Assembly: GCA_036274895.1 (NCBI GenBank)
Contig: DASUEU010000027.1
Coordinates: forward strand, 136,883 to 200,882
Direction of reading: 5' to 3'
Origin: Thermoanaerobaculia bacterium
GTDB lineage: Bacteria > Acidobacteriota > Thermoanaerobaculia > Multivoradales > SZUA-115
DNA: 64,000 nucleotides
The translations under genes and the position numbers were made by a program. Below the pieces are notes generated by a model that did no database searches, had not been told where the DNA came from, and worked only from the letters and a program-made list of their open reading frames with translations. Of the stretch, positions 9,187 through 57,112 are shown piece after piece (position 1 is the stretch's first letter; each line of letters starts with the position of its first letter).

Positions 9187-9912
9187 ATGGCTGAAGCGAA
9201 GAAGACCAATCCCTGGGTGTGGGTGGCTGCCGGCTGCGGGGGTGTCATCGTGCTGGGCGGCCTGGCGATCATGGGCCTCGGCTGGTGGGGGTTCAACAAG
9301 GCCAAGAGCTTCGAGCGCCAGCTCAAGGATCCGGTCGCCCGCGAAGCGAGCGTGCGCGAGATCCTGGGTGCGGACTCGCTACCGGATGGCTACCACGCCC
9401 ACATGGGCATGTCCCTGCTCGGCTTCATGAAGATGGCCATGCTCTCCGACCGCGAGCTTCCCGCGGGGGAGGATCCGGGCGGCAAGGTCCCTTTCGACGA
9501 GCGGGGCTTCTTCTACTTCGACATGATGGCCGGCAGCAAGAACGCCAAGAAAGTCGAAGACTTCATCGCCGGCCGGATCGGCGTCGAGGAGATGCTCGAG
9601 GACACCAATGTCAACCTCGACCTCGACGAGGGCGAGAAGATCGCCGAAGGTCCGGTGGCCATCGCCGGCGGCCAGGCGCGCTATGTGGCGCAGCGGGGTG
9701 GTGTGGGCATGGGCGTCAAGCGCCAGGACGACAGCCTCAACACCATGGTGCTGGTGGACTGCCCGGGCGATCGCCGCTTCCGCTTCGCCATCTGGTTCGG
9801 CCCCGACCCCAACCCCGACGCGCCCGCCGACCAGTTGGACCTGACCGGCACTCCCGCCGACCCGGCGGCGCTCGAGGCGTTCCTGGGGCATTTCCATCTC
9901 TGTGGGAGATAG
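9187..9912 (+). CDS. Hypothetical membrane-anchored protein
   Basis: N-terminal TM helix (WVWVAAGCGGVIVLGGLAIMGLGWW). No recognisable domain. Coding-like GC3. Confidence 0.5.
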   Translation: MAEAKKTNPWVWVAAGCGGVIVLGGLAIMGLGWWGFNKAKSFERQLKDPVAREASVREILGADSLPDGYHAHMGMSLLGFMKMAMLSDRELPAGEDPGGKVPFDERGFFYFDMMAGSKNAKKVEDFIAGRIGVEEMLEDTNVNLDLDEGEKIAEGPVAIAGGQARYVAQRGGVGMGVKRQDDSLNTMVLVDCPGDRRFRFAIWFGPDPNPDAPADQLDLTGTPADPAALEAFLGHFHLCGR

Positions 9913-10098
9913 GGGCAGCCGCCTACCCTCCCAGGTCCCGGGGGCCGCAGAGCGGCCGGAGAGGAGGAGTCGCGTCCTCCTTCCCCGACCCGCCAGGGAC
10001 GTTCATGGGTCGTTGAGGGACTTTGGTCCCTCGCGCGGACCGGGCATTCCCAGCCGCCCCGGCTTCAGTTACCCTAGCCACCTCTCGCGAGGACCCCG

Positions 10099-10884
10099 AT
10101 GACCGTCCGCACTTACAACAACTACCTGAAGATCGACGAGCTTCTCTCCCTCCAGCAGCCGGTCTCGGAGGGGCCGGAGCATGACGAGATGCTGTTCATC
10201 GTCATCCACCAGGTCTACGAGCTCTGGTTCAAGCAGATCCTCTGGGAGTTCGACTGGCTGCGCGGCGCCCTCGAGGCCAATGAGCGGCCGCGGACGATGG
10301 CGACCCTCAAGCGCATCCTGACCATCCTGAAGACCCTGGTCGGGCAGATCGACGTCCTCGAGACCATGACGCCGGTGGACTTCAGCTCGTTCCGCTCACG
10401 CCTGGACTCGGCGAGCGGCTTCCAGTCGGTGCAGTTCCGTGAGGTGGAGTTGGTGCTGGGGCATCGCCGCGAAGGTCAGCTCGATCACGTGCCGGCGGGG
10501 GGGCCCGAGCGCGCCCGCCTCGAAACACGACTCCGCGAACGCACTGTCTACGACTCCTTCCTGCGCTTCCTAGCTGCCAATGGTCACCCGGTACCGGCCG
10601 AGGTGCTGGACCGGGACGTCACGCAGGCACCCGCCGAGGACCAGCGGGTGCGCGCGATTCTGGTGGGCATCTACCGCCGGGACCCCGCCCTGCGCGAGAC
10701 CTGCGAGCGCCTGGTGGACCTCGACGAGGGGATCCAGGAGTGGCGCTACCGCCACGTCAAAATGGTGCAGCGCACCATCGGCACCAAGCGGGGCACCGGC
10801 GGATCGGCGGGGGCCGAGTACCTGCGCAACACTCTCTTCCAGCCTCTCTTCCCCGACCTCTGGGCCATCCGCACCGAGCTTTGA
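10099..10884 (+). CDS. kynA: Tryptophan 2,3-dioxygenase
   Basis: YNNYLKIDELLSLQ N-terminal signature and overall TDO-like sequence, ~260 aa. Confidence 0.85.
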   Translation: MTVRTYNNYLKIDELLSLQQPVSEGPEHDEMLFIVIHQVYELWFKQILWEFDWLRGALEANERPRTMATLKRILTILKTLVGQIDVLETMTPVDFSSFRSRLDSASGFQSVQFREVELVLGHRREGQLDHVPAGGPERARLETRLRERTVYDSFLRFLAANGHPVPAEVLDRDVTQAPAEDQRVRAILVGIYRRDPALRETCERLVDLDEGIQEWRYRHVKMVQRTIGTKRGTGGSAGAEYLRNTLFQPLFPDLWAIRTEL

Positions 10885-10904
10885 AGCCACCGCGAGGGAA
10901 CCGC

Positions 10905-12101
10905 ATGGACCTGTCCCAGCTCCGCCAGTCCCCCAACGCCCTCGCCCCACACTACTCACGTTTCCGCGTCGCCGAGCGGCTGCTGCTCACCGGCCACTCC
11001 CATCAGGCCTGGCCGGACTGCGCTCGAGAGGGGCAGCTTCAAGCCTTCGACGAGGCCGCCGCCTACGTGGACGGCAAGTGGCCGCACGCCTTTGCCAAGG
11101 CCGAGCGGGTGGCCCGGGGTCTCGCCGAGCGGATTGTGGACCCGAGCGGCAGCTATGCCCTGGCGGACTCGACCCACAGCCTGCTCGTCAAGTGGCTTTC
11201 GGCCCTGCCGTGGCGGGAGCGGCGCCGCATCGTCACCACGGACGGGGAGTTCCATGCCTTGCGGCGGCAGCTGGCCCGGCTGGAGGAGGAGGGCATCGAG
11301 GTGGTGCGGGTGCCGTCGCGACCGAGCGATGGGATCGCCGAGGGCCTCGCCGCCGCCGTGGACGACCGCACGGCCGCAGTGATGGTCTCGGCCGTGCTGT
11401 TTCGCAGTGCCGAGATCGTGCCCGGTTTGGAGCGGGTGCTGGCCGCGGCGCAGCGGGTGGGCGCCGAGCTGATGATCGACGCCTACCACGTGCTCAACGT
11501 GGTGCCTTTCCCTCTCGCCGAGCTGGGGTTGGAGGACGCCTTCGTGGTCGGGGGTGGCTACAAGTACCTGCAGATCGGCGAGGGCAACGCCTTCCTGCGC
11601 GTGCCGCGGGGACGGGACCTGCGGCCGGTGTTCACCGGCTGGTTCGCGGAATTCGCGGCCCTGTCCAGCCATCACGATCCGCTGCGGGTGGCCTACGGCC
11701 CCGGCGCCTCCGCCTTCGGCGCCGCCACCTACGACCCGACCAGCCAGTACCGCGCCGCGGCGGTGTTCGACTTCTTCGACGAGCAGGGCTTGACCGTGCC
11801 CTTCCTGCGCCAGGTCAGCCAGCACCAGGTGGGGCTGCTCGCCCGCCTCTTCGACGATCTCGACCTGCCGCCGGGGCTGATCTCTCGCGAGCGGGACGTG
11901 CCGCTGGAGCGCATCGGCGGCTTCCTGGCCCTGACCTCGCCCCGGGCCGGGGAGATCTCCGCCGCCCTCGCCCGCCGCGGTGTGGCCACCGACTACCGCG
12001 ACACCACCCTCCGCCTCGGCCCCGCCCCCTACCTCTCCGACCGCCAGATCGAAGAGGCCATGGGGCTGCTGGGGGAGGCGGTGCGGGAGGTGGCGGGGTA
12101 A
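10905..12101 (+). CDS. kynU: Kynureninase (PLP-dependent)
   Basis: LTGHSHQ and GGGYKYLQ.GEGNAFL motifs characteristic of kynureninase; RBS before the ATG at 10905. The longer six-frame ORF starting at 10740 is an out-of-frame extension. Confidence 0.8.
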   Translation: MDLSQLRQSPNALAPHYSRFRVAERLLLTGHSHQAWPDCAREGQLQAFDEAAAYVDGKWPHAFAKAERVARGLAERIVDPSGSYALADSTHSLLVKWLSALPWRERRRIVTTDGEFHALRRQLARLEEEGIEVVRVPSRPSDGIAEGLAAAVDDRTAAVMVSAVLFRSAEIVPGLERVLAAAQRVGAELMIDAYHVLNVVPFPLAELGLEDAFVVGGGYKYLQIGEGNAFLRVPRGRDLRPVFTGWFAEFAALSSHHDPLRVAYGPGASAFGAATYDPTSQYRAAAVFDFFDEQGLTVPFLRQVSQHQVGLLARLFDDLDLPPGLISRERDVPLERIGGFLALTSPRAGEISAALARRGVATDYRDTTLRLGPAPYLSDRQIEEAMGLLGEAVREVAG

Positions 12102-12237
12102 GATTCTCGGGCCGGAGAGGCCGGCTCTCGCCATGCACTCCTTGATCGAACGCTCGTGGCCACCGTTGAGCTAGTCATGGCCGAGGCTGGCGCAGATCGG
12201 TGAGGCCGCCTGGGCTAGAATCGCCCGGCCACTGACC

Positions 12238-13809
12238 ATGAGCATCGATTCCCCCTTCGAGGTTCCGGAGCGGTTCAACCTCGCCCAGCACCTGCTCGAC
12301 CGCCGCGTCGAGGAGGGGTTGGGCGAGAAGGTCGCGTTGCGCGTGGACGGCGCGGACGGCTCGACCCGCGAGTGGACCTACCGCGAGGTCTCGGAGCTGG
12401 CGCACCGCGTCGGGGACGTGCTGCGCCGGATGGGTGTCGAGCCCGAGCAGCGGGTGATCCTCGCCGTGGCCGACTCGGCCGAGTACGCGGGCTCCCTCTT
12501 CGCCATCCTGGGCATCGGGGCCGTGGCCGTGATGGTCAACCCCCGGCTCGCCCAGGACGATCTGGCGGCGATCTTCGAGTACACCCGCGCGAGCGCGGCG
12601 ATCGTCGAGAGTGAGGTGATGGCGACCTTCCTCGCCGCCCGGGGCGCGGGCCGCTATCCGCGCCGCCTGCTCACCGTGCGCGGAGCGGTGGACGGCTTCC
12701 CGGCCCTCGAGGAGGAGCTGGCGGCGAGCTCCGGGGACTCACCGCTCGAGCCCACCCACCGGGACGACCCGGCGATCTGGCTCTTCTCGGGCGGCACCAC
12801 CGGGCGGCCGAAGGCGGTGGTGCAGAGCCACGGCTCCTTCGCCAACACCACCGAGCTCTACGCTCGCCGGGCCCTGGGCTACCGGGCGAGCGACGTCACC
12901 CTTTCGGTCCCCAAGCTCTTTTTCGGCTACGCCACTGGCTCGAACCTCTTCTTCCCCTTCTCGGTAGGCGCCACGGCCGTGCTCTTCCCCGAGCACCCGA
13001 CCGCCGAGATCCTGTTCGAGAAGATCCGGCGCCACCGGCCGACCATCCTGATCAACGTGCCGACCATGGTGTCGCACATGAGCCAGCACCCCGAGGCCGG
13101 GTTGCAGGACCTCACCTGCCTGCGCTTCGCCACCTCGGCGGGGGAGGCCCTGCCGGTGGCTCTCTACCACCGCTTCAAGGAGACTTTCGGCGTCGAGCTG
13201 CTGGACGGGCTGGGCACAGCCGAGATGTGGCACATCTTCGTGACCAACCTGCCCGGGGCGGTCAAGCCGGGCACCCTGGGGCGCGTGGTGCCCGGCTTCG
13301 AGCTCAGGATCGTCGACGAGGAGGGCCGCGAGGTCGGCCCCGGCGAGGTCGGGCGGATGTGGGTGCGGGGCCATTCCCGCGCCCTCTGCTACTGGCAGGC
13401 GATGGGCAAGACGATGGAGGCCTTCCAGGGCGAGTGGTACGTGGGCGGGGACCTCGCCAGCCGCGACGAGGAAGGCTACGTCTCGTACCACGGCCGGGGG
13501 GACGAGGCCCTGAAGGTGGGCGGCAAGTGGCTGGTGCCGGCCGAGGTGGAGGGCTGTTTGCTGCGCCACCCGGCGGTCAAAGAATGCGCCGTGGTGGGCG
13601 TCGCCGACGCCAGCGGCCTGACCAAGCCCCACGCCTGGGTGGTCGCCAACACCACCGCCGACGCCGCCCTCGCCGAAGAGCTCAAAGCCTGGGCTCTCTC
13701 CCGCCTCGACGCCTACAAACACCCCCGCGAGATCCACTTCTCAGACGCCCTCCCCCGCACCCACCTGGGCAAGGTGGACCGTGGGAAGCTGCGGCGCGAA
13801 GGCGCCTGA
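12238..13809 (+). CDS. Benzoate-CoA ligase family AMP-forming aryl-CoA ligase (inferred anthranilate/2-aminobenzoate-CoA ligase)
   Basis: 523 aa with the SGGTTGRPK AMP-binding motif and a BadA/BclA-like N-terminus (FNLAQHLLDRRV...). The substrate assignment is inferred from the adjacent kynA-kynU. Confidence 0.75.
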   Translation: MSIDSPFEVPERFNLAQHLLDRRVEEGLGEKVALRVDGADGSTREWTYREVSELAHRVGDVLRRMGVEPEQRVILAVADSAEYAGSLFAILGIGAVAVMVNPRLAQDDLAAIFEYTRASAAIVESEVMATFLAARGAGRYPRRLLTVRGAVDGFPALEEELAASSGDSPLEPTHRDDPAIWLFSGGTTGRPKAVVQSHGSFANTTELYARRALGYRASDVTLSVPKLFFGYATGSNLFFPFSVGATAVLFPEHPTAEILFEKIRRHRPTILINVPTMVSHMSQHPEAGLQDLTCLRFATSAGEALPVALYHRFKETFGVELLDGLGTAEMWHIFVTNLPGAVKPGTLGRVVPGFELRIVDEEGREVGPGEVGRMWVRGHSRALCYWQAMGKTMEAFQGEWYVGGDLASRDEEGYVSYHGRGDEALKVGGKWLVPAEVEGCLLRHPAVKECAVVGVADASGLTKPHAWVVANTTADAALAEELKAWALSRLDAYKHPREIHFSDALPRTHLGKVDRGKLRREGA

Positions 13810-13815
13810 GGCTCC

Positions 13816-15337
13816 CTACTTTCCGATCCTCGCCCACCACTCCTTGGGCATCAGGTCGATGGGCAGGATGTAGCCGAGGTGGGAGTAGCCTTCGGTGTCC
13901 TCGACGGACGCGGTGGGGACGCCGATCAGGCGGAAGCTGCCGTCCAAGGCCGCGCCGCCGGAGTTGCCGGAGGCGATCTCGGCGTCGGTCTTGAGCACCA
14001 CACCGTGGCCGGTGGTGTCGAAGCCGCTGATCACCCCCCGGGTCAGGGTCACACTGGCCCGGCTGCCCAGGCCGCCGACGCTCGGGAAGCCCACGATGGT
14101 GATCGGCTCGCCCATGCGCAGGTTGCCGGGGTGGCCGAGCTCCAGGGCCGGGAAGCGGTAGCCGGCGGGCAGGGGCTGGCCATAGAAGCCGCTCTCGATC
14201 TTGACCAGGGCGAGGTCGAGGTCCTTGTCGTGGAGCTTGACGCTGCCCCGGAACATCTCCAGGGTGGGCCGGCGGGGGTCCAGGCAGAGGCCGATCACCA
14301 GCTCGCCGGGGGCGAGCAGGTTGCCGGCGTCGTCCTCGACCACGTGGTAGTTGGTGAGCACCCAGCCGTCGGGGGAGACCAGCGTGCCGCTGCCGGTCGC
14401 AGTCTCGGTCAAGATCTCGACGGTGCCGAGCAGGGCGCGGTCGAGCCCGTCGGTGGGGGCGCGCAAGGTCGGGATGGCCAGCAGCTCGGGCGGCGGCGTG
14501 GCCTCGAACCGCGCGTGCACGGTGAAGCCCACCGGATCCAGCTCGAAGGGGTCGAAGACGTTGACGTACCAGGTGCCGGCGGCCAAGGGAGGATCGGTCG
14601 AACGGTCGATCAGCAGCGTCTCGCGCCCCCGCACGCTCTCGGCCACCAGATCGGTGGGCTCGCGCTCGAAGATCGGCCGGCCGCGACGCGCGATCAGGTC
14701 GAGGTCGCCGTAGACGTCGTCGAGGTCGATGCGCAGCACGCGGGCCGTGGAGGGCACCTCGATGCGGAAGGTGCGGAACCAGCCGCTCTCGGGAGTGGTC
14801 TGGCTGGTGATCGGCTGGCCCGGGGCGAGAGGGCCGTCCACCCGGGCCTGGATGATCTCCGCGGTGAGGGTGAACGGCAGCTCGCGCGCCCGCTTCTTGC
14901 CGATGCGCGGCTCGCTCTCGAGGTTGTAGACCACGTCGATGTAGTAGACGCCGGGAGCAAGCGGCGGGTCGTTGGCGCGGGAGATGCGCAGGGTCTCGTT
15001 GTAGAGGTCGGAGATCGCTTCGTGCTCGGCGTCTTCCTCGTAGTCGAGGATCGGCGCGCCGTGGCGGGCGAAGAGGTCGAGGTCCACCGGCGAGCCGTCC
15101 AGGCGCAGGGTCAGCACCATGGCGTTCTCCGGCACGGTCACTCGAAAGCTCGCCCAGCGCTGCTCCCCCCAATCGATCACTCCGGCGGCGGGCCGGCCGA
15201 CCTCCAGGAAGGGACCGAGGTCCACCTCGGGGGTGGTGCCGCCAGCGCCTTCCTCCTCTTGGCCCCGGGCGAGCGCCGGCGCGAGCAGGCAGAGGGCGAC
15301 CAAGGCCCGGACGGCGCAGCGGCGTGCGGCGTTCACG
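13816..15337 (-). CDS. Secreted trypsin-like serine protease (S1 family) with two N-terminal PPC (pre-peptidase C-terminal) domains
   Basis: Signal peptide RRCAVRALVALCLLAPALA; two DLDL(F/I)ARxG PPC motifs; C-terminal TGSGTLV...NYHVV, DLALVK and GNSGGA catalytic triad context. GTG start inferred. Confidence 0.75.
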
Positions 15338-16478
15338 GCATCCCCCCGGCGACGATCAGGCCGCGGTCGGCGAGGGCTCTGGCGAAGCTCGGATCCCGGC
15401 GCCAGAGGCTCTCGGAACGCACCTTCTCGCTGCGCGTCATGGCCTTGAGGGCGAAAGCGAGGGGGTCGAGGTCGAGATCCTGGCGGGCGTTCTCGAACCA
15501 CTCGAGGCTGGCCTGGGCCGCCTGCTGGTAGGTCTCGACGCTCGGCCGGCGCTGCTCCTCGTAGGCGGCGAAGGCAGCGGGCAGGCCGGGCTCGCTGGCC
15601 AGGGCGTCGGCCAGGGCCACGGCGTCCTCCATGGCCAGCTTGGTGCCCGAGCCGATCGAGAAGTGAGCCGTGTGGACCGCGTCACCCAGCAGCACCGCCT
15701 TGCCGTGGCTCCACCGGCGGCAGCGCACGGTGGCGAACTGGATCCACCGCGACAGGTTCGAGAGCAGAGAGTAACCGTCGAGATCCTCCTCGAAGACCCC
15801 CTCCAGGAAGGCCCGGCTCTCCTCCTCGGCGGCCCGGTCGAGGCCGGCGGCGCGCCAGCTCTGCTCGTCGCACTCGACGATGAAGGTCGAGAGGTCCGGG
15901 CTGAACTTGTAGGAGTGGGCGATGTAGAGGCCCTGCGCCCGCTCGCGGAAGGTCAGGGTGAGGGCGTGGAAGAGGCGGTGGGTGCCGTACCAGACGTAGC
16001 GGTTCCGGCGGAAGTCGAGCTCCGGTCCGAAAGCGTCCCTCCAGGTCTCCCGCACCAGGCTTTTCACGCCGTCGGCGCCGACCAGCAGGTCGTGGGGGGG
16101 CAGCTCGTCGAGGCTGGTGATCTCGACCCCGAAGTGCAGGTCCACACCCAGCTCGCGGCATCGCTCCTGGAGCACCTGGAGGAGGGAGATGCGGGCGATG
16201 CCGGCGAAGCGGTTGCCGCCGATCGTCACCTTCTCGCCGCGATGGACGATCTCCAGGTTCTCCCAAGTGACCAGCCGCTCCTCGATCCGCTCCGAGACCA
16301 CGGGGTCGGGGGTCTCGAGCCCGGCCAGGGTCTTGCCCGAGAAGACCACGCCCCAGCCGAAGGTGCTGGAGGCGGGGTTGCGTTCGAGCACGGTCACCGA
16401 GCTGGCCGGCTCTCGCCCCTTGATCAGGGCCGCCAGGTAGAGCCCCGCCGGGCCTCCACCGAGGATCACGACCTTCAT
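15333..16478 (-). CDS. Class A FAD-dependent monooxygenase (salicylate-hydroxylase-like; candidate aryl-CoA monooxygenase component)
   Basis: MKVVILGGGPAGLY Rossmann fingerprint, DGVKSLVR and GDAVHTAH.GSG motifs. Its start overlaps the upstream OYE gene stop as ATGA. Confidence 0.8.
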   Translation of the reverse strand: MKVVILGGGPAGLYLAALIKGREPASSVTVLERNPASSTFGWGVVFSGKTLAGLETPDPVVSERIEERLVTWENLEIVHRGEKVTIGGNRFAGIARISLLQVLQERCRELGVDLHFGVEITSLDELPPHDLLVGADGVKSLVRETWRDAFGPELDFRRNRYVWYGTHRLFHALTLTFRERAQGLYIAHSYKFSPDLSTFIVECDEQSWRAAGLDRAAEEESRAFLEGVFEEDLDGYSLLSNLSRWIQFATVRCRRWSHGKAVLLGDAVHTAHFSIGSGTKLAMEDAVALADALASEPGLPAAFAAYEEQRRPSVETYQQAAQASLEWFENARQDLDLDPLAFALKAMTRSEKVRSESLWRRDPSFARALADRGLIVAGGMP

Positions 16479-17941
16479 GCGGGACCTCCTGCCGAAGGCT
16501 GCCAGGGGGGAGCGAGCAGGCGGCGCCGGCCGTCGGCGGCACGGGCGACCCCCGGCGCGTCGAGATCGAGCCGGTCCCACAGCTGGCAGGTCACCTGCTT
16601 GTGCACCTGGTCGAGACCCTCGCAGTAGTTGCAGTAAACACAGCGGCGGATCTCCTCCCCCGCCCCCAGCCTCATCTTGCGCCACCAGTCGGGGTCGGCC
16701 AGGCTCTGGCGGGCGGCCCCGACGACATCGGCGTCCCCCCGGGTGAGCAGGTCCTCGGCCTGGCGGAAGCTGGTGATGCCGCCGGTGGCGACGATGGGCG
16801 TCGAGAGGCCGGTCTCGCGCAGGGCGGCGCGGATCTGCCGGGCCGCGCCGAGGTTGCGGCCGAACGGCCCGCGGGCGTCGGAGAGCGCCGTGGGCATGCA
16901 CTCGTAGCCGGAGGGGCCGGTGTAGGGGTAGGCCGCCCAGCCCACTCGCGGCTGCTTGGCGTCCTCGAACTTGCCGCCGCGCGACAGCGACAGGAAGTCC
17001 ATCCCCGAGCGCGCCAGCTCGACCCCGAAAAAGCAGGCGTCCGCGAGCGTCGAGCCGTCATCGATCGCCTCGTCGGCGAGGTAGCGGCAGCCGACCGGAT
17101 AGCCCTCGCCGACTCGCTCGCGCACCCGGCGGAACACCTCGACGGGTAGGCGGATGCGGCCCTCGCGGGAGCCACCGTAGCCGTCGCTCCGGGAGTTGCG
17201 GGCGGAGAGGAAGGAGGCCATGGTGTAGGCGTGGGCGTAGTGCAGCTCCACGCCGTCGAAGCCCGCCTGCTGTGCCCGCACGGCTGCGGCCGCGAAGAGG
17301 TCGGGGAGCACCCGCGGCAGCTCGGCGATCTGGGGCAGGTGGAGGTCCGTGACCCGTTCGCGGTAGCCGAAGCGCAGGGCCTCGAGCTCGCGCTCGTCGA
17401 GCACGGCGGGCAGCTCGGCATCGGCCAAGGCGAGCAGGGCCTCGCGGACCGCCTCGTCGCCGAGACCGTGGCCGAAGAAGGCCCGGTGCCGGTCGGTCAG
17501 GGTGAGGAAGCGGCGAAAGAACTTCTCGGGCTCGGGGCGGCGGCGGATGGCGAGGAAGTCGATGATCTGGATCAGCAGCCGGGTGCGCCCGCCGCTCGCC
17601 CTCTTGACCGTCGCCACCAGCTCGGCGAGGCCGGGCAGGAAGCGGTCATGGCCGATGCGCAGCAGGGGGCCGCTCGGCACGTCGCGGATGCCGGTGGCCT
17701 CGACCACGAGGGCGCCGGGCTGGCCCTGGGCGAAGCGCTCGTACCAGGCCAGCACGTCGTCCGTCACGAAGCCATCCTCGGTGGAGCGCCAGGGCACCAT
17801 GGCCGGCACCCAGGTGCGCTCGGCGAGGGCCAACGGTCCCAACGAGATCGGCGAGAAGAGCCGCGAGCGCTCGGCCTCCTCCGCGCTCGGCCAGTCTCCC
17901 GGCGGACTCTCGTGCCTGATGCGCTCCGGCGGTTTCCACAT
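16475..17941 (-). CDS. Old-yellow-enzyme family FMN oxidoreductase with a 4Fe-4S motif (2,4-dienoyl-CoA-reductase-like N-domain)
   Basis: TIM-barrel OYE motifs (HYAHAY, GGSREGRIRL); C-terminal CVYC.YC...(11)...C cluster-binding signature (C-x2-C-x2-C-x11-C) as in FadH. Confidence 0.75.
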   Translation of the reverse strand: MWKPPERIRHESPPGDWPSAEEAERSRLFSPISLGPLALAERTWVPAMVPWRSTEDGFVTDDVLAWYERFAQGQPGALVVEATGIRDVPSGPLLRIGHDRFLPGLAELVATVKRASGGRTRLLIQIIDFLAIRRRPEPEKFFRRFLTLTDRHRAFFGHGLGDEAVREALLALADAELPAVLDERELEALRFGYRERVTDLHLPQIAELPRVLPDLFAAAAVRAQQAGFDGVELHYAHAYTMASFLSARNSRSDGYGGSREGRIRLPVEVFRRVRERVGEGYPVGCRYLADEAIDDGSTLADACFFGVELARSGMDFLSLSRGGKFEDAKQPRVGWAAYPYTGPSGYECMPTALSDARGPFGRNLGAARQIRAALRETGLSTPIVATGGITSFRQAEDLLTRGDADVVGAARQSLADPDWWRKMRLGAGEEIRRCVYCNYCEGLDQVHKQVTCQLWDRLDLDAPGVARAADGRRRLLAPPWQPSAGGPA

Positions 17942-17971
17942 TTTGCGTTCGGGCAGTATATCCGCCCCGGC

Positions 17972-19168
17972 TCAGGCCCCTTGGGAGCGCTTGAGCAGCT
18001 CACGGGCAATCACCAGGTGCTGGATCTCGGTGGTGCCCTCGTAGATGCGCAGGGCGCGGATCGAGCGATAGAGGCGGTCGACGGGGTGGTCGACCAGCAC
18101 CCCGCGGCCGCCCAGGATCTGCACCGCGCCGTCGACCACCCGCTGGGCCGCCTCCGCGGCGTAGGACTTGGCCATCGCCGCCTCGTAGGTGGCGCGGGGG
18201 GCACCGGAGGCGATCTCCCACGCCGCCCGGTAGGTCAAGAGGCGAGCCGCGGCCAGCTCGGTGGCCATCTCGGCGAGGCGGGCCTGCACCAGCTGGTGCT
18301 CGGCCAGGGGCCGGCCGAACTGCCGCCGCCCCCGGGCGTGGGCGAGGGCCTCCTCGAGGGCTCGGGCCGCCATGCCGCAGGCGGCCGCCGCCACCGTGGG
18401 GCGCAGCCGATCGAGGGTCGCGAGGCCGAGCTTGAAGCCCTCCCCCGGTCCTCCCAGCACGGCCTCGGCGCCGACCCGGCAGCCCCGAAAAGCGAGCTCC
18501 CCGAGCGGGTGCGGGGAGGAGAGCACCTGGGCGCGGACGAAGGTGAGGCCCGGGTCCCCGGCCTCGACCAGGAAGGCGCCGATGCCCTTGGCGCCGGCTC
18601 CCGGCGCGGTCTGGGCGAAGACCACGTAATAGTCGGCCACGCCGGCGTTGGTGATCAGGTGCTTGCCACCCTCGAGCACGTAGCCGTCGCCGTCGGCATG
18701 GGCGAGGGTGGTCATCGACGCCACGTCCGAGCCGGCCTCGGGCTCGGTCATGGCGAAGGCGGCCATGGCCTCCCCGGCCGCCACCCGCCCCAGCCAGCGG
18801 GCGCGGGCGGCGTCGTTGCCGGACAGGGTGAGGGGCATCGAGCCCAAGCCCTGGAGGGCGAAGACGGAGTCCGCCAGGGGCGAGGCAGCAGCCAGGGCCT
18901 CACGGATCAGGCACAGGGCCAGGGCGTCCGGAGCTCCGGCAACGCCGCCCCAGGCCTCGGGGATCGCCCACCGGCAGAGCCCGGCTCTCCCCAGCTCGCC
19001 GAGCAACTCCCGGGCCTCGACCCGCGCCGCCTCGTCCGTCAGCGCCTCCGGCCGCCCGGCCAGCCGCTCCCTGGCGAACGTCTCGGCCTCCCGGGCCAGG
19101 TCCAGGTGGCGCTCCGCGAGGAAGGGCTTGAGCAGAGCCAGGTCGTGCCAGCCCATCCCGGCGCTCAT
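17972..19168 (-). CDS. Acyl-CoA dehydrogenase
   Basis: 398 aa with ACAD-family architecture (…GGRGVLVDHPVDRLYR…). Confidence 0.8.
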   Translation of the reverse strand: MSAGMGWHDLALLKPFLAERHLDLAREAETFARERLAGRPEALTDEAARVEARELLGELGRAGLCRWAIPEAWGGVAGAPDALALCLIREALAAASPLADSVFALQGLGSMPLTLSGNDAARARWLGRVAAGEAMAAFAMTEPEAGSDVASMTTLAHADGDGYVLEGGKHLITNAGVADYYVVFAQTAPGAGAKGIGAFLVEAGDPGLTFVRAQVLSSPHPLGELAFRGCRVGAEAVLGGPGEGFKLGLATLDRLRPTVAAAACGMAARALEEALAHARGRRQFGRPLAEHQLVQARLAEMATELAAARLLTYRAAWEIASGAPRATYEAAMAKSYAAEAAQRVVDGAVQILGGRGVLVDHPVDRLYRSIRALRIYEGTTEIQHLVIARELLKRSQGA

Positions 19169-19965
19169 CGGAAGACCGCCTTGCGCTTGTCGACGAAGGC
19201 GCGGTGGGCCTCCTTGAAGTTGGGGTCGAGCATGCAGGCGGCCTGGATCTCGGTCTCGGCGGCCAATGCGCTCTCGAAGTCCATCGTCTGCTCCCTCAGC
19301 ACCATCATCTTGGTCACCGAGAGGCCGAACGACGGCCCGCGGGCGAGCCTCTCCGCCCAGGCGCGGGCTTCGGTCAGGGCTTCGCCGTCCGCCACCACCC
19401 GGTTGTAGAGGCCCATGGCGCAGGCGTCGCGGGCCGAGACGAAGTCCCCGAACATCAGCAGCTCCATGGCCCGGCCCTGGCCGACCAGCCTGGGCAGTAG
19501 CCAGGAGGCGCCCATGTCCGCACCCGAGAGCCCGACCTTGGTGAACAGGAAGGCGATCTTGGCGCTCTCGGCGGCCACGCGCAGGTCGCAGGCCGAGGCG
19601 ATCACCGCGCCGGCCCCGGCGACGGTGCCGTTCAAGGCGCCGAGGATCGGCCGGCGGCAGCGCAGCATGGCGAGGATCAGGGCGCCGGTCGCGCGGGTGA
19701 ACTCCAGCAGGCCCTGGAAATCACGCTCGAGCAGGGGCCCGATGATGTCCTCGACGTCGCCTCCCGAGCAGAAGGCCCGGCCCTCGCCGGTGAGCACGAT
19801 GGCGCGCACCCCCTCCTCTCCGTCGAGGGCGCGGAAGGTCTCCGCGAGCTCGCGGTAGACCTCGAAAGTCAGGGCGTTCAAGCGCTCGGGGCGCGAGAGG
19901 GTGATGGTGGCCACGCCGGTGTCGGCGTCATGGTGGTAGCGGAAGCTCTCGGGCGCGATGGGCAT
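19165..19965 (-). CDS. Enoyl-CoA hydratase/isomerase (crotonase family)
   Basis: ITLSRPERLNAL...AFCSGGDV oxyanion-hole motifs; overlaps the downstream ACAD by 4 bp. Confidence 0.85.
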   Translation of the reverse strand: MPIAPESFRYHHDADTGVATITLSRPERLNALTFEVYRELAETFRALDGEEGVRAIVLTGEGRAFCSGGDVEDIIGPLLERDFQGLLEFTRATGALILAMLRCRRPILGALNGTVAGAGAVIASACDLRVAAESAKIAFLFTKVGLSGADMGASWLLPRLVGQGRAMELLMFGDFVSARDACAMGLYNRVVADGEALTEARAWAERLARGPSFGLSVTKMMVLREQTMDFESALAAETEIQAACMLDPNFKEAHRAFVDKRKAVFR

Positions 19966-20019
19966 GGTGGTCTCCTCGGCCGGGAGGGCGCACGGCTGTG
20001 CGCCCCCACGGCTGACGTT

Positions 20020-20436
20020 TCAGCGACTCTGTGGCTCAGGCACCACGGCCGTGGCTTCGATCTCGACCTTGGCCTCGGGCACTACCAGGGCCGCCACCTG
20101 GAGCAAGGCCATGGCCGGGTAACAGCGGCCCATCACCCGGCGGTAGGCCTCGCCCACGGCCGAAAGATCCGCCAGATACTCGGCGCACGAGGTGACGTAG
20201 AAGTTGATGCGGCCGATGTGCTCCGGCCCACCCCCGGCCGCTCGCACCACCGCGAGCACGTTGCCGAGGGCTGCTTCGAACTGTTCGATGAAGGTGGTGC
20301 CGCGCAGCTGGCCCCCGGCGTCCCAGGCGATCTGCCCGGCGACGAAGAGCAGGCGCCCTCCGGGCGGCGCCAGCATGCCGTTCGAGTAGCCCCGTGGCGC
20401 GCCCAGGGACTCGGGGTTGATCGGGGTCATGGCCGC
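20020..20436 (-). CDS. RidA/YjgF/TdcF family enamine/imine deaminase
   Basis: ~140-aa C-terminal portion of the long ORF 20020..21036. The start could be at 20436 or 20448. The upstream 600 nt of that ORF is an artefact overlapping the SDR gene. Confidence 0.7.
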   Translation of the reverse strand, partial: AAMTPINPESLGAPRGYSNGMLAPPGGRLLFVAGQIAWDAGGQLRGTTFIEQFEAALGNVLAVVRAAGGGPEHIGRINFYVTSCAEYLADLSAVGEAYRRVMGRCYPAMALLQVAALVVPEAKVEIEATAVVPEPQSR

Positions 20437-20438
20437 GC

Positions 20439-21218
20439 TCATGGGATGTAACCTCCGCCGTCGAGCACCCAGGCCTGACCGTTGACCCCCTTGGCCCGCG
20501 GATCGCACAGGCAGCGCACCAGATAGGCCACCTCCTCGGGCTCGAAGATCCGGCCCTGGGGGCTCATCTTGGCCAGGCGGGTGCGGGCGTCCTGGTCCGA
20601 AAGCCCCGTCTTCTCGCGGATCTTGGCCACCGACTGCTCGGTCATCGGGGTGGCGACGTAGCCGGGGCAGACGGCGTTGACCGTCACCCCCTTGGCGGCG
20701 AGCTCCAGGGCGAGCGAGCGGGTCAGACCGATGACGGCATGCTTGGTGGCGGTGTAGGCCGAGATGTAGGGAGCCCCGGCCAGGCCGGCCACCGAGGCGA
20801 CGTTGACCACCCGCCCCCAGCCGCGGCTCGCCATCTCCGGGGCGAACTCCTTGGCGCAGAGGAAGACCCCGTGGACGTTGACCTGCATCAGCCTCTCGAG
20901 CTCGGACAGCTCGAGCAGCTTGAGTGGTGCCGAGGAGGCGATGCCGGCGTTGTTGACCAGGATGTCGACCTGGCCGAAGGCCTCGCGGGCGGCGCGGCCG
21001 AGGGCTTCCACCTCGTCGGGCAGGGTGACGTCGCACCGCGCGGCGGCGGCCCGGTAGCCCTGGCTCACCAGGCTCGCGGCCACCGCCTCGACGTCGGAGC
21101 GGGAACGGGCGGCGACCATCACGGCCGCCCCCTCGCGGGCCAGCTCGGCCGCCACCGCGGCGCCGATGCCTCGGCCGCCGCCGGTGACGACGGCCGTCTT
21201 GCCGGAAAGCGCGCTCAT
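20439..21218 (-). CDS. SDR family oxidoreductase (3-hydroxyacyl-CoA dehydrogenase/FabG-like)
   Basis: TGGGRGIG cofactor motif, NNAG, and the S...Y..K catalytic motif (YTATK). Confidence 0.85.
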   Translation of the reverse strand: MSALSGKTAVVTGGGRGIGAAVAAELAREGAAVMVAARSRSDVEAVAASLVSQGYRAAAARCDVTLPDEVEALGRAAREAFGQVDILVNNAGIASSAPLKLLELSELERLMQVNVHGVFLCAKEFAPEMASRGWGRVVNVASVAGLAGAPYISAYTATKHAVIGLTRSLALELAAKGVTVNAVCPGYVATPMTEQSVAKIREKTGLSDQDARTRLAKMSPQGRIFEPEEVAYLVRCLCDPRAKGVNGQAWVLDGGGYIP

Positions 21219-21997
21219 CCTTCTCCTCCCAGGGCTGCGATCACCGCATCCGCGACGATGCCGCCCAGCTCATGGATCGTGGCGCGACCCTCTTCGGCGG
21301 TGGCCGCCGCCGGGTCGCCGAAATAGGCCATGGGTCCTCCGGCCTCGGCGAAGGTGCGCTGGCCGGCGCGGATCGCCTCCGAGAGGGAGCGGGGGTTGGC
21401 GGCGAGCTGCCGCGCCCGGCCCTGGCGCACCCGCTCGGGCTGGGCGGCGAGGACGATCGAGGTCTCGTATTGGCCGGCGTGGCAGGCCCCGGAGCGCAGC
21501 TCCTCGGTCAGCCGCAGGGCCCAGGGCTTCCTGGCGACGTTGGGGAAGACCACCGGCACGCTGCCTCGGGACCGGGCGGCGACCACCGCAGCTTCGAGCG
21601 CCGCCAGGTGGGCCGGGTCGAGGTGAGCGTTGGCCAGGGCCAGGGCGCGGGCTCCCTGTCGGGTCCAGGCCAGGGCGAGGTCGGCCACCAGGGCCGTGAC
21701 CGTCTCGGCCGTCACCGACAGAGTGCCGGGAAAGGCATCTGCGAAGGGGGCCGCGACGTAGTCGAGGCCCGGGAGCACCACGGCCGTCCAGCCCGCCCGG
21801 GCCAGGATCTCGGCCCCGGCGCTGGCCATGGCCCCGGCGATGATGCCGTCGGTGAGCAGGGAGAGGTGGGGACCGTGGGCCTCGACGGCGCCCACCGGCA
21901 GGATGCCCACCAGCCGCTCCCTGGGGAGGGCTGCGAATTCCGTCCAGGTCAGGGCGGCCAGCTCGAGCGCCGCGCCGCCGGTCTCGGGTTGGCTCAT
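21215..21997 (-). CDS. Creatininase-family amidohydrolase
   Basis: ILPVGAVEAHGPHL and CHAGQYETS motifs of the creatinine amidohydrolase family. Confidence 0.7.
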   Translation of the reverse strand: MSQPETGGAALELAALTWTEFAALPRERLVGILPVGAVEAHGPHLSLLTDGIIAGAMASAGAEILARAGWTAVVLPGLDYVAAPFADAFPGTLSVTAETVTALVADLALAWTRQGARALALANAHLDPAHLAALEAAVVAARSRGSVPVVFPNVARKPWALRLTEELRSGACHAGQYETSIVLAAQPERVRQGRARQLAANPRSLSEAIRAGQRTFAEAGGPMAYFGDPAAATAEEGRATIHELGGIVADAVIAALGGEG

Positions 21998-22731
21998 CGC
22001 GCTCGGGGCTCACTGGCGACGAAGACGGCGGCGATCGAGCCCACTCCCTCGAGCCGCGCCAGGGAGACCGGCTCGAAGCGGTAGGAGGCGGCGCTCACCC
22101 CGGCGGGACCGGGAGCGGCGAAGTCCGGGCCGACGCCCGGCGGCGGCAGCTGCCCGAAGAGCTCGAGACGGCCGAAGCGGGAGCGCAGCAGATCCTCCCA
22201 CTCCCAGAGGTAGAGATTGTTGGGTTGGAAGCTCGAAGCGCGGTGCCGCTCGAGGGTGGTCTCGTCGATCACGGGTGGCACCGAGGCGATCAGGCGACCT
22301 TCTGGGGTGAGGTGCGAGGCCGCCCAGGACACCGCCCGGTCCAAGTCGAGGAGCTGAGCGAGCACGTTGCCGGCGACGATCAGCTCGAAGGAGCCGTTCG
22401 GGCCCCCGGCGCTGTCGAAGGAGCGACAGGAGAAGGTGATCCGGGGGTCGCTGTAACGCCGCCGGGCGAAGGCGACGGACTTGGGGTCGGGATCGAGGGC
22501 CGCCACCGACCGCGCCCCGGCGCGCAGCAGCTCGGCGGCGCCGTAGCCGGTGCCGCAGCCGAGGTCACAGACTGTTCGTCCCTCGGCGAAGCGGCCGGCG
22601 AAGAGATAGAAGCCGAGGTGGGCCTCGAAGAGATCATTGGCCACCACCGGCGCCACCGCCCGGCTTCCCGGCGGCAGGCCGTAGCGCAAGCGGGCCAGAC
22701 GGTTCCTGACACGGCGAAGAAGCGAGGCCAT
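21994..22731 (-). CDS. Class I SAM-dependent methyltransferase
   Basis: DLGCGTGY motif I; AGGAGGG RBS before the ATG at 22731; overlaps the creatininase start by 4 bp. Confidence 0.7.
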   Translation of the reverse strand: MASLLRRVRNRLARLRYGLPPGSRAVAPVVANDLFEAHLGFYLFAGRFAEGRTVCDLGCGTGYGAAELLRAGARSVAALDPDPKSVAFARRRYSDPRITFSCRSFDSAGGPNGSFELIVAGNVLAQLLDLDRAVSWAASHLTPEGRLIASVPPVIDETTLERHRASSFQPNNLYLWEWEDLLRSRFGRLELFGQLPPPGVGPDFAAPGPAGVSAASYRFEPVSLARLEGVGSIAAVFVASEPRAR

Positions 22732-22821
22732 TTCCCTCCTCGGAGCAGCGGGCAGTGAGTCGCGCTCGCGGCGAAACGCGGCGATTCTATCGCCCGGAAG
22801 CCGCGTGTTAATCTTCGCGCC

Positions 22822-23376
22822 ATGCTCCGAGAAGAGCCCGAGATGCTGGTGCCGCGGGCACCGGAAGGCGAGAGGCTCAACCTGCTCTTGCCGTCCCCGA
22901 TCGGCGAGCTCGGGCTGACCCTGCGCGGCACCGTGGTGACGGCCCTCACCATCGCGCCCACCGACGCCCTGCGCGAACGCTACACGCCGTTCACCGAACT
23001 CGATGGCGACGAGTTCCTGGAAGAGGTGGTGGGGCGTTTTTCCGAGTACTTCGCGGGCGCCCGCACCTCCTTGGAGCTCGAGCACGACCTGTCGGATTTC
23101 GAGCTCTCGAGCTTCGCGCGGCGGGTGTTCCGGGAGACGGTGAAGATCCCCTACGGCCGCACCCGCACCTACAACAAGGTGGCCGCCCTGGCCGGGCGCC
23201 CGGAGGCCTACCGGCAAGTGCTCGCCATCCTGGTCGCCAACCCGATCCCGATCCTCATCCCGTGCCACCGGGTGGTGACCCACAAGTCGGGGATCGGCAG
23301 CTTCGTCGGCGGCCAGGACCGCAAGCGCTGGTTGATGGCGATGGAAAAAGAGGCGCTCAAGGAGCAGGACCGGTAG
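22822..23376 (+). CDS. ogt: Methylated-DNA-protein-cysteine methyltransferase
   Basis: IPCHRVV active-site motif and DNA-binding HTH (TYNKVAALAG). Confidence 0.85.
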   Translation: MLREEPEMLVPRAPEGERLNLLLPSPIGELGLTLRGTVVTALTIAPTDALRERYTPFTELDGDEFLEEVVGRFSEYFAGARTSLELEHDLSDFELSSFARRVFRETVKIPYGRTRTYNKVAALAGRPEAYRQVLAILVANPIPILIPCHRVVTHKSGIGSFVGGQDRKRWLMAMEKEALKEQDR

Positions 23377-23509
23377 GGGCGCGGTCTCCGCGCCCCGCGG
23401 CGATCTGCGGCATCCGGTGCAGGGGCCGACCAATGTGTCGGCCCTCCCCGCCCCGGAGGGCGGACACGCTGGTCCGCCCCTACGACCGGAGGCGCACGGC
23501 CGTGCGCCC

Positions 23510-24668
23510 CTACTCCCTCTCGAGGACGATCTCGACCTCGGTCTCGTCCCGAGCCTCGACGGTGAACGTCTTCTCCACCGTTTCGAAGCCCGGTCGCACC
23601 ACCTGCAGGCGGTGCTCGCCCGGATCGATGATCAGGCCCTTCCTCAGGCGACCGAGATCTTCTGCGGTGCCCAGGAAGCGCCCGTCGAGATAGACCGAGG
23701 CGTCCCCCGGCTCGATCACGAGGCGAACGCGGCCCGGCTCACCCCTCACGTCGTAGGCCTCGGCGTCCTCGGCCGGCGGCGCCTTGGCCTCGGCGCCATC
23801 TTCCTGCCAGTACCAGCGCCCTCCCGACCCCTGGCGGGGAGCCTGCTCGCGCTTCGGTGCCGCCCGCTCGAAGATCTCCTCCGGCGGGACGGAGTCTCCC
23901 GGTTGCAGGGTGTCCTCCAGGTCGATCACCACGCCCGAGCGGATCTCGTAATCACGGACGAGGGTCTCATAGCCGTCCAGGTAGACCACCACCTGGTAGC
24001 TGCCCTCGGGCAGCCACAGGAAGCTCGGAAAGCCGTCGAAGTCGTCGGCAGTGCCCATCTGCTGGCCGTCGACCCAGATCTCGGCATGCTCGGGGTTGAC
24101 GTCGAAGTCCAGGGCACCGGAGCGCTCCTGGGTCTCGTACCAGTAGTAGGGGCGGTCGTAGTAGGAGCGGTAGCGGGGATGGTAGTAGTAGGGGTAGTAG
24201 GGATCGTTCCAGCCCCACCACGGCCAGTAGTAGCCGCCGTACCAGCCCCAGTAGTAGTTGTAGTTGTTGGAATGGCGCCCGTAGTAGGTGCCGGGGCGAT
24301 GGTGGTGGCCGTCCCCCGAGCCCCGGGGCCGCTCGACTCGCGTGCGGCCCGGCGACGGCGAACCTTCCCAGCTCGGACGGGTGCGGCCGGCCCGGGCCGA
24401 GGAGGAGGAAGAGCGGTCGCCGCTCTCCCGGGACGAGGCCGAAGGGGACGAGCCCGACGACGAGCGGGAGGAGGAGCTCGAGGCCGACGAGCCGGAAGAC
24501 GAGGACGACCCTGAGGTCGTGCGCTCCACGCGCACCGGGGGACCGCTGCTATCGCTCGGCCTCGAGCGCTCCCCGGCGATCACGCTCTGCGCGCTCGCGA
24601 GGAAGGCGGCGGTTCCGAGCACGAGCGCGACTCGAGGCCACGCGGGGACCTGGCTGGGGACCTTCATG
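23510..24668 (-). CDS. Secreted protein with a Ser-rich and a Tyr/Trp-rich low-complexity region and two C-terminal PEGA domains
   Basis: Signal peptide MKVPSQVPAWPRVALVLGTAAFLASA; ~55-aa segment YYGRHSNNYNYYWGWYGGYYWPWWGWNDPYYPYYYHPRY...; two PEGA-like units (LPEGSYQVVVYLDGYE; IDPGEHRLQVVRPGFE). ATGA overlap with the upstream GT2. Confidence 0.7.
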
Positions 24669-46018: not shown

Positions 46019-46021
46019 GGC

Positions 46022-57105: not shown

Positions 57106-57112
57106 GGTCCGG

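Follow-up and report, generated by a model that had tools for sequence, protein, structure and literature searches.

A predicted tryptophan-to-anthraniloyl-CoA catabolic gene cluster with a stand-alone hydroxylase in a Thermoanaerobaculia bacterium

Gene content and organization of the locus

We analyzed a 64,000-nucleotide stretch of contig DASUEU010000027.1 from the metagenome-assembled genome of an uncultured, soil-type Thermoanaerobaculia bacterium (Acidobacteriota), hereafter called the window, in which genes of the kynurenine pathway of tryptophan degradation face an operon for enzymes that act on coenzyme A (CoA) esters. A first-pass annotation, made from the sequence without database searches, had read this arrangement as a route from tryptophan via anthranilate to 2-aminobenzoyl-CoA (anthraniloyl-CoA), followed by dearomatization and beta-oxidation-like steps, as in the abm pathway of Azoarcus evansii. 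Genes were called by combining codon-position GC analysis and open reading frame (ORF) listing with Pfam and NCBIfam scans (the G+C content is ~70% across the window). The features of the locus are listed below; the NCBI entries given for the kynureninase, monooxygenase and OYE are identical to the products encoded here:

10099..10884, plus strand: kynA, tryptophan 2,3-dioxygenase (TDO), 261 aa (PF03301)
10905..12101, plus strand: divergent kynureninase (kynU), 398 aa, NCBI HEX4952770.1 (accepted on a weak KYNU_C match, fold, motifs and context)
12238..13809, plus strand: aryl-CoA ligase of the benzoate/2-aminobenzoate-CoA ligase family, 523 aa (TIGR02262)
13816..15336, minus strand: secreted trypsin-like serine protease with PPC domain, last gene of the operon (Trypsin_2 and PPC matches)
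15333..16478, minus strand: stand-alone class A FAD monooxygenase, 381 aa, NCBI HEX4952773 (N-terminal half of PRK08255)
16475..17941, minus strand: flavoprotein of the Old Yellow Enzyme (OYE) family, 488 aa, NCBI HEX4952774 (PF00724)
17972..19168, minus strand: acyl-CoA dehydrogenase (ACAD), 398 aa (all four ACAD Pfam domains)
19165..19965, minus strand: crotonase-family enzyme (ECH) of the PRK08258 type, 266 aa (PRK08258 above cut-off)
20020..20442, minus strand: Rid-family protein, non-archetypal (Arg105 to Met), candidate enamine/imine deaminase (PF01042)
20439..21218, minus strand: short-chain dehydrogenase/reductase (SDR), 259 aa (adh_short, E 5e-64)
21215..21997, minus strand: creatininase-family metal hydrolase, 260 aa (PF02633)
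21994..22731, minus strand: class I S-adenosylmethionine-dependent methyltransferase, 245 aa, first gene of the operon (Methyltransf_25/11/23)
22784..22811, minus strand: sigma-70-like promoter match, TTAACA-16-TAGAAT (10 of 12 consensus positions)

The plus-strand genes kynA, kynU and ligase converge with the minus-strand operon, in which the order of transcription is methyltransferase, creatininase homolog, SDR, Rid, crotonase, ACAD, OYE, monooxygenase and protease. Start and stop codons overlap by 4 bp at six junctions (methyltransferase/creatininase, creatininase/SDR, SDR/Rid, crotonase/ACAD, OYE/monooxygenase and monooxygenase/protease); the minus-strand genes are translationally coupled and constitute one operon, as tightly knit as had been noticed at first. 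All genes named by the first-pass annotation were recovered by Pfam and NCBIfam in the order and on the strands that it gave, and its list of operon members needs only to be extended by the secreted protease between the monooxygenase and the ligase, which it did not mention. The promoter match, located just upstream of the methyltransferase gene, is the sole one between 9 and 24 kb, where 0.3 would be expected by chance, and is a match to the consensus only. Terminator-like matches in the region do not exceed expectation, an Rfam scan of the whole window gave zero matches, and a repeat scan gave matches at chance level only.

Conservation of the gene neighborhood

For comparison we fetched 92 related loci (numbered here with the prefix L), 80 of them from a scan with the monooxygenase over one genome per GTDB species, further loci being reached through the divergent kynureninase. 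The loci were scored with the proteins of the window, and linkage to kyn genes was counted within 10 kb. All-against-all clustering of ORFs was partly confounded by antisense shadow ORFs, which are due to the high GC content, and only clusters confirmed by Pfam were used. Eleven of the 27 loci with a stand-alone monooxygenase, mostly from Pyrinomonadaceae/Blastocatellia, possess kynA, kynU and a ligase 43-47% identical to that of the window, and in these loci the kyn genes lie beside genes for OYE (57-66% identity), ACAD, crotonase and Rid. Orthologs of kynA adjoin kynU and the ligase gene in 18 related loci. L089 reproduces the convergent architecture of the window; L087, L088 and L091 have the order TDO-kynureninase-ligase, which in L087 and L088 is followed within 10 kb by the monooxygenase and OYE, and in L091 by a contig edge just after the ligase. 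In L092 (Gemmatimonadales) the genes are co-directional, in the order creatininase-SDR-Rid-ECH-ACAD-OYE-ACMR-TDO-kynureninase, where ACMR denotes the fused anthraniloyl-CoA monooxygenase/reductase. A canonical kynureninase lies within a fused-ACMR cluster of Chloroflexota (L059), and one Streptomyces locus has kynA beside a fused ACMR.

Altogether, at least four phyla have kyn genes beside the module, arranged in several gene orders. For a single-copy gene, kynA for example, the probability of lying in a given 20-kb stretch of a 5-Mb genome is ~0.4%; because co-location recurs far above this level, the association between the kyn genes and the CoA operon is functional and not accidental. The gene identities by homology, the operon structure and the conserved co-location of kyn genes, ligase and CoA operon can be regarded as established. 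The chain of reactions proposed at first pass is well supported by this homology and by the conserved context in Acidobacteriota, Gemmatimonadota and Chloroflexota, and the direct wiring to tryptophan that it had emphasized is borne out by the recurrent kyn linkage, but is less novel than was supposed, as the route has already been recognized (PMC9007349).

The same recurrence, which includes one co-directional operon, makes it improbable that the adjacency of the kyn genes is incidental and that the minus-strand operon degrades another aryl-CoA, such as salicylyl-CoA (as does SdgC of Streptomyces) or a benzoate derivative. Such a role would agree with the NCBI name of the whole monooxygenase family (PRK08255), taken from salicylyl-CoA 5-hydroxylase, with the equal closeness of the ligase to benzoate-CoA ligases, with the unrelated contexts of some stand-alone monooxygenases (L006, L018, L020, L032), and with the occurrence of kynA-kynU without the module in L090. 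It does not agree with a deaminase-type Rid as the most conserved partner, and genes of the gentisate pathway were not found in Pfam scans of the window.

L090, from a related member of Thermoanaerobaculia, deserves separate mention. Its region 9196-14920, compared with 10099-25599 of the window, contains the TDO-kynureninase pair followed by PMSR, GT2, PEGA-domain and Ogt genes, and all of these except PMSR have their matches among the genes that border the operon on its far side in the window. By this arrangement, the ligase and the nine-gene operon behave as an insertion/deletion module beside kynA-kynU.

Two alternative downstream modules go with the monooxygenase family, namely crotonase/ACAD/SDR, as in the window, and the actinobacterial thioesterase/cupin/fumarylacetoacetate-hydrolase/PaaX set, as on plasmid pAL1. 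The latter was also observed as a gentisate-like module, with Rid and a PaaX-type regulator, beside fused ACMR-like genes of Actinobacteria in L004, L036, L052, L053, L069, L070 and L072. No cupin dioxygenase, thioesterase or fumarylacetoacetate hydrolase-family gene is found in the window; such genes are present only with the actinobacterial fused forms.

Tryptophan dioxygenase, divergent kynureninase and the formamidase gene

The kynA product matches PF03301 with an E-value of 2.8e-66 (224.7 bits, cut-off 34.9) and aligns over its full length with TIGR03036, where its 273 bits stay under the equivalog cut-off of 390.7. The order kynA, kynU, ligase is as first annotated; the kynU product, however, is very divergent. 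It gives no match to the NCBIfam kynureninase model TIGR01814, barely passes KYNU_C (27.6 bits only), and by sequence is only marginally similar to kynureninases in the PDB (E ~0.005), no better than to NifS. Its AF2 model is confident (pLDDT 90.8) and finds as its top PDB fold match the kynureninase of P. fluorescens (1QZ9; E 1.5e-21, TMq 0.83, 25% identity), whereas NifS/SufS cysteine desulfurases show only ~15% identity to the same model. The motifs D-x-x-H, G-Y-K-Y and R-L-G-P-x-P-Y line up with those of canonical kynureninases, in whose structures we take them to provide the Asp and Lys that contact pyridoxal phosphate (PLP) and the carboxylate-binding Arg. The divergent clade is large, is called kynureninase by both NCBI and IMG, and its gene lies immediately 3' of the TDO gene in 7/7 loci of the clade examined (L087-L092 and the window). 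Because of the clade naming, the fold match to 1QZ9 and the conserved motifs, we accept this PLP enzyme as a divergent kynureninase, with kynurenine as its presumed substrate.

A gene for kynurenine formamidase (kynB) was not found in the window, in agreement with the first-pass annotation: Pfam scans of the other ORFs were negative, and the motif HxGTHxDxPxH of cyclase-type KynB had no six-frame match.

The aryl-CoA ligase

The ligase comparison suggested at first pass was carried out with HMMs and PDB sequences. It places the enzyme in the TIGR02262 family (466 bits, cut-off 375), with nearly equal matches to the benzoate-CoA ligase 2V7B from Burkholderia (364 bits) and the anthranilate-CoA ligase AuaEII (4WV3, 358 bits), i.e. 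sequence does not separate it from benzoate-CoA ligases. Substrates are shared between the characterized benzoate-CoA ligases and 2-aminobenzoate-CoA ligases of the family (PMC8388817). It is the context, not the sequence, that points to anthranilate as the substrate: orthologs of the ligase (43-72% identity) follow kynA/kynU in 14 loci of the split type, and others (43-62% identity) accompany fused ACMRs in L064, L078, L081 and L085. An exact-sequence look-up of the ligase gave no match; the deposited record probably has a different start codon.

The similarity to AuaEII, which primes aurachin synthesis, and the use of kyn genes by Pseudomonas to supply synthesis of the Pseudomonas quinolone signal (PQS) (PMC3053476) could suggest that kynA-kynU-ligase feeds anthraniloyl-CoA into a quinolone or other anthranilate-derived metabolite, as PqsA and AuaEII do. 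We rejected this biosynthetic role as very improbable, because condensing enzymes are absent: neither ketosynthase, polyketide synthase, non-ribosomal peptide synthetase nor PqsBCD-like genes were found in the window or the conserved neighborhood, where the constant partners are CoA-ester enzymes of catabolic type.

Predicted ring-attack enzymes: the stand-alone monooxygenase and the OYE-family flavoprotein

The monooxygenase matches only positions 1-380 of the 768 of PRK08255 (452 bits) and ends there. With the corresponding part of fused ACMR-like proteins, including those of Arthrobacter pAL1 and Paracoccus, it shares 45-50% identity, its relatives in IMG are named "anthraniloyl-CoA monooxygenase", and its nearest PDB entry is VioD. 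In a rough, midpoint-rooted neighbor-joining tree the stand-alone monooxygenases (~380 aa) form one clade apart from the fused, 750-800-aa ACMR-like proteins; L024 belongs to the split form according to tree and hit pattern, despite an upstream extension of its ORF.

The OYE-family protein has a different affinity. Its best NCBIfam matches are BaiCD (162 bits) and FadH-like OYE, while the ACMR reductase domain reaches 112 bits only, and its best-covering PDB folds are 2-naphthoyl-CoA reductase (NCR; TMq 0.62) and FadH. The protein contains a helical insertion of ~70 aa and has a C-terminal tail rich in Cys, and ends ~50 residues past its cysteine motif; with no Pyr_redox match, the C-terminal FAD/NAD(P)H domains are missing. 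The homology check suggested at first pass thus confirmed the monooxygenase as a member of the ACMR/SdgC family and put the OYE outside the ACMR reductase subfamily; the monooxygenase corresponds to ACMR 1-380 only, the OYE is nearer to FadH, BaiCD and NCR than to the ACMR reductase domain, and the pair is not a split copy of AbmA.

Orthologs of the OYE occur in 25 related loci (57-76% identity), always with the monooxygenase adjacent, and the OYE gene adjoins the monooxygenase gene in 22/22 stand-alone loci with ECH, ACAD, Rid or kynA/kynU, where the contig is long enough. As the OYE also accompanies fused enzymes, lying directly upstream of complete ACMRs in L044, L078 and L092, it is not simply the missing half of ACMR, and by its sequence relationships we do not consider it the detached C-terminal half of that enzyme. 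We also considered that the two genes might be a frameshifted fused gene, and rejected this, as the gene order is reversed, the ORFs overlap by 4 bp and the split is kept in more than 25 species. Small toxin-antitoxin-like gene pairs were observed inserted between the OYE gene and its neighbors in L001 (8991-9874, DUF3368-containing) and L089 (15707-16416, PhdYeFM/PIN).

Four cysteines of the OYE are invariant (C348, C434, C440 and C452), and C437 is found in this genome only. The four-cysteine Fe-S-type motif is accordingly complete only here, its second position being Ser/Thr in the orthologs, among which the regular expression CxxCxxC...C returned zero matches. Because no ortholog has the complete motif, we dropped the "OYE-FeS" label of the first-pass annotation as a secure feature. 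The low-confidence internal segments of the AlphaFold model (residues 323-354 and 435-458; the other low-confidence parts are the extreme N-terminus and one short loop) are invariant in sequence and bear the invariant cysteines, and may form a site that depends on a cofactor or partner.

The company of fused ACMRs, which own a reductase domain, suggests that the OYE may catalyze a reduction different from that assumed for ring attack. The monooxygenase might only hydroxylate, yielding aromatic 5-hydroxyanthraniloyl-CoA, and the OYE might act separately and later, reducing an aryl- or enoyl-CoA in the manner of NCR or FadH; in that case the two proteins would not match ACMR in function, and the route would have other intermediates than in Azoarcus. 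The model scores and fold matches of the OYE are in line with this course, as is the release of 5-hydroxyanthraniloyl-CoA by ACMR under limiting NADH (PMC3534580). We nevertheless rate it as rather unlikely, since the invariable adjacency in the relevant stand-alone loci fits an obligatory partnership, and the thioesterase/cupin-dioxygenase set for an aromatic hydroxy product is absent here and restricted to actinobacterial clusters of the fused type.

Rid, SDR, crotonase, ACAD and the creatininase homolog

The Rid protein scores 49 bits against TIGR00004 (cut-off 106) and, when aligned to PDB 8V8R, has Met in place of the RidA Arg, and is a member of the Rid superfamily but not an archetypal RidA. 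The first-pass annotation had counted RidA among the additions to abm; this proved incorrect, as Rid genes are present in 47/92 fetched loci, the annotated clusters of Paracoccus and Arthrobacter among them, and are the most constant neighbors of ACMR-like genes. The Arg-to-Met change is found in 43/47 of these ACMR-linked Rid genes, from several phyla, and the proteins with this change define a distinct, pathway-specific subfamily. Arg105 of archetypal RidA binds the substrate carboxylate; its loss would fit an enamine/imine without a free alpha-carboxylate, e.g. the 2-amino-cyclohexene CoA ester formed by ACMR. The constancy of Rid as a partner also fits an amino-substituted rather than a hydroxy-substituted ring.

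The SDR resembles 3-hydroxybutyrate dehydrogenase models (248 bits, cut-off 258), the crotonase exceeds the cut-off of PRK08258 (358 versus 330 bits) and has orthologs in 41 related loci, and the ACAD resembles the models of acryloyl-CoA reductase and cyclohexane-1-carbonyl-CoA dehydrogenase, below their cut-offs. Because the same genes are found in the annotated abm-like cluster of Paracoccus (SDR 44%, crotonase 52%, ACAD 49% identity, and 44-52% for these three and Rid together), all four are core components of abm-like clusters.

The creatininase homolog matches PF02633 (E 1.8e-47, 162 bits, cut-off 31), and falls below the cut-offs of the specific equivalogs (MftE 106/172, creatininase 78/235, IolN 28/245); no mycofactocin genes are found near it. 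It keeps the Glu/His/Asp/His metal-ligand positions, with one Glu-to-Asp change, and the catalytic His, roles that we assume from creatininase structures. Orthologs head the same operon in L001, L007, L064, L078, L081, L085, L089 and L092. In all, nine loci, which belong to Acidobacteriota, Gemmatimonadota and Dormibacterota, have a creatininase homolog heading the CoA operon, with kyn genes nearby or not, and it is absent from the kyn-linked clusters of Pyrinomonadaceae. It is thus a recurrent accessory in three phyla that travels with the CoA operon and not with the kyn genes, and it was rightly listed at first pass as an addition relative to abm.

In the absence of kynB from the window, this protein could also be the missing formamidase, replacing KynB non-orthologously and acting on N-formylkynurenine or N-formylanthranilate. 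The metal ligands are kept, the window, L089 and L092 combine the homolog with a kynureninase of the divergent clade, and the creatininase family includes a formamide hydrolase, archaeal ArfB. Against such a function, the gene is the first of the CoA operon and occurs also in loci that lack kyn genes within 10 kb (L001, L007, L064, L078, L081, L085), clusters of Pyrinomonadaceae have kynA and kynU and manage with no creatininase homolog, and kynB often sits elsewhere in the genome; we consider the formamidase role unlikely. Its position at the operon head irrespective of kyn genes, together with the absence from kyn-linked Pyrinomonadaceae, leads us to favor a putative role on a CoA ester or ring intermediate.

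Proposed pathway

Homology and conserved context together suggest, with fair confidence, that the cluster is a tryptophan catabolic module proceeding via anthranilate and anthraniloyl-CoA. TDO would open the indole ring to give N-formylkynurenine, which a formamidase from outside the window, or possibly the creatininase-family enzyme, would convert to kynurenine; the divergent kynureninase would split the latter into anthranilate and alanine, and the benzoate/2-aminobenzoate-type ligase would form anthraniloyl-CoA. The stand-alone FAD monooxygenase is predicted to hydroxylate the ring para to the amino group, like the N-terminal half of Azoarcus ACMR, and the OYE-type flavoprotein to reduce it to non-aromatic 2-amino-5-oxocyclohex-1-ene-1-carbonyl-CoA or a close relative. 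The Arg-to-Met Rid would then hydrolyze the enamine/imine, freeing ammonia, and further processing of the alicyclic CoA ester, with opening of its ring to give aliphatic CoA esters, would fall to the SDR, the PRK08258 crotonase, the ACAD and the creatininase-like hydrolase. All substrates named here are predictions from sequence, as are the functions of the OYE and the creatininase homolog and the order in which the reactions follow ring attack.

A more specific proposal is tentative: Acidobacteriota and Gemmatimonadota might employ a two-protein ring attack, by the hydroxylase and a truncated FadH/NCR-like OYE whose four invariant cysteines bind a metal or an Fe-S cluster, with the creatininase homolog and the Arg-to-Met Rid deaminating and opening the ring.

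Several observations weigh against the proposed pathway. The kynureninase homolog fails the curated models, kynB is not in the window, the ligase sequence is equivocal, and the OYE stands also beside fused ACMRs; kyn genes are not within 10 kb of the CoA operon in L001, L007 and L078, and L090 has kynA-kynU alone. Moreover, all protein assignments in this clade depend on homology and context, and the steps that follow ring dearomatization have never been worked out, even in Azoarcus.

If the two-protein ring attack and the proposed functions of Rid and the creatininase homolog are true, the cluster would provide a gene set for the downstream half of a pathway that has been open since the early 1990s. 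In any case the cluster family supplies concrete candidates for the steps missing for about three decades: a conserved core of Rid (Arg to Met), SDR, PRK08258 crotonase and ACAD, and lineage-specific parts comprising the stand-alone hydroxylase, the 488-aa OYE and the creatininase-like hydrolase. It further indicates that this route is of common occurrence among uncultured soil phyla that are abundant, and that it is tied directly to tryptophan catabolism, and would correct the annotations "salicylyl-CoA 5-hydroxylase", "NADH:flavin oxidoreductase" and "creatininase family protein".

Probable passenger genes and other regions of the window

The methyltransferase, also regarded at first pass as an addition to abm, is present here and not conserved: it matches no specific NCBIfam family, its sole other match is partial and lies 3 kb from the operon in L007, and L089 and L092 lack it. 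The protease shows a signal-peptide-like N-terminus and a GTG start that overlaps the stop codon of the monooxygenase (GTGA); no ortholog was found in any related locus. Both were rejected as conserved members of the pathway for want of consistent counterparts in related loci, and we treat them as local passengers, though they are co-transcribed here. When the other ORFs of the window were scanned with Pfam, no thiolase, regulator or transporter that could be assigned to the pathway was found.

Directly upstream of kynA (9187-9912, plus strand) lies a gene for a 241-aa predicted membrane-anchored protein that matches nothing in Pfam or NCBIfam and lacks counterparts in the related loci. Region 33907-36888 encodes a 516-aa protein with a Somatomedin-B-like domain at its C-terminus and a CVNH (cyanovirin-N homology) protein, both domains being unusual for a bacterium. 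An 838-aa Peptidase_S74 (endosialidase chaperone) protein is encoded in 43505-48000, beside DNA of lower G+C content (0.627 at 46-48 kb), and several ORFs of this region have no Pfam match; it may be foreign or phage-derived DNA. On the minus strand, 56320-61717 contains genes for a crotonase, an AtuA-family protein and a carboxyltransferase, resembling acyclic terpene/leucine utilization and separate from the tryptophan cluster.

Comparison with known systems

The aerobic 2-aminobenzoate (abm) pathway of A. evansii, with the ligase AbmG, the ACMR AbmA and beta-oxidation-like genes (Schuhle et al. 2001, summarized in PMC4539516 and PMC8388817), forms with box and paa the classic trio of "hybrid" aerobic aromatic pathways that depend on CoA. 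For the content of the Azoarcus cluster we relied on reviews and on the annotated Paracoccus and Arthrobacter clusters; the abm-like cluster on a plasmid of Paracoccus denitrificans PD1222 comprises a fused ACMR, SDR, crotonase, ACAD, thioesterase, Rid and ligase. The window shares with abm an AMP-forming aryl-CoA ligase, a class A FAD monooxygenase of the ACMR N-terminal type, an OYE-family flavoprotein, and the clustered crotonase, ACAD, SDR and Rid. Unlike in abm, where ACMR is a single polypeptide, monooxygenase and OYE are separate genes in an order reversed relative to the fusion, and the OYE is of another subfamily, with a FadH/BaiCD/NCR-like N-terminal module, the insertion and the Cys-rich tail. 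The window further differs in adding the creatininase-family hydrolase (and, in this genome only, the methyltransferase and protease), in including kynA and kynU, and in belonging to an acidobacterium.

Aerobic degradation of anthranilate via 2-aminobenzoyl-CoA is known from A. evansii and from Arthrobacter Rue61a (PMC4539516, PMC3534580). In the latter, the ligase encoded beside the monooxygenase has measured anthranilate-CoA ligase activity, and anthraniloyl-CoA and C7 CoA esters were detected (PMC3534580). Its plasmid pAL1 resembles the window in the ligase gene adjacent to an ACMR-like monooxygenase (48% identical to ours over the monooxygenase part) and in the Arg-to-Met Rid nearby, but its enzyme is a fused protein of 797 aa, its ligase, with 31% identity, is from a different subfamily, and its neighbors are thioesterase, cupin, fumarylacetoacetate-hydrolase and PaaX genes (gentisate-like) instead of crotonase, ACAD and SDR.

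With the KynA-KynB-KynU pathway of Pseudomonas, Bacillus and Cupriavidus the window has in common a TDO followed by a PLP enzyme of the kynureninase fold, and differs in the lack of KynB and in a kynureninase clade that fails TIGR01814. In model organisms anthranilate from this pathway enters dioxygenase/catechol routes or PQS, whereas here a CoA ligase comes next. SdgC of Streptomyces sp. WA46 belongs to the same monooxygenase family and likewise acts on an ortho-substituted benzoyl-CoA. The sdg system reportedly continues via a gentisyl-CoA thioesterase and gentisate 1,2-dioxygenase; the window has no genes for such enzymes and instead encodes the deaminase-type Rid. The 2,4-dienoyl-CoA reductase FadH, BaiCD and NCR, all OYE-type FMN/[4Fe-4S]/FAD enzymes acting on CoA thioesters, share with the OYE a TIM-barrel followed by a cysteine motif, but have the C-terminal FAD/NAD(P)H domains that it lacks, and differ from it in the ~70-aa helical insertion and in the second cysteine, which is Ser/Thr in its orthologs.

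Degradation of tryptophan via ACMR has been recognized but is incompletely known, and pathway-annotation tools omit it because too little is known about it (PMC9007349). In Cupriavidus, kyn genes appear alongside abm genes in genome reconstructions (PMC8879955). In the full-text literature we found no description of the split hydroxylase, the 488-aa OYE, the creatininase member, the Arg-to-Met Rid subfamily or the operon-level kyn linkage. The idea of the pathway is therefore already known, and it is the separate ring-attack enzymes and the extra enzymes that make the variation represented by this cluster.

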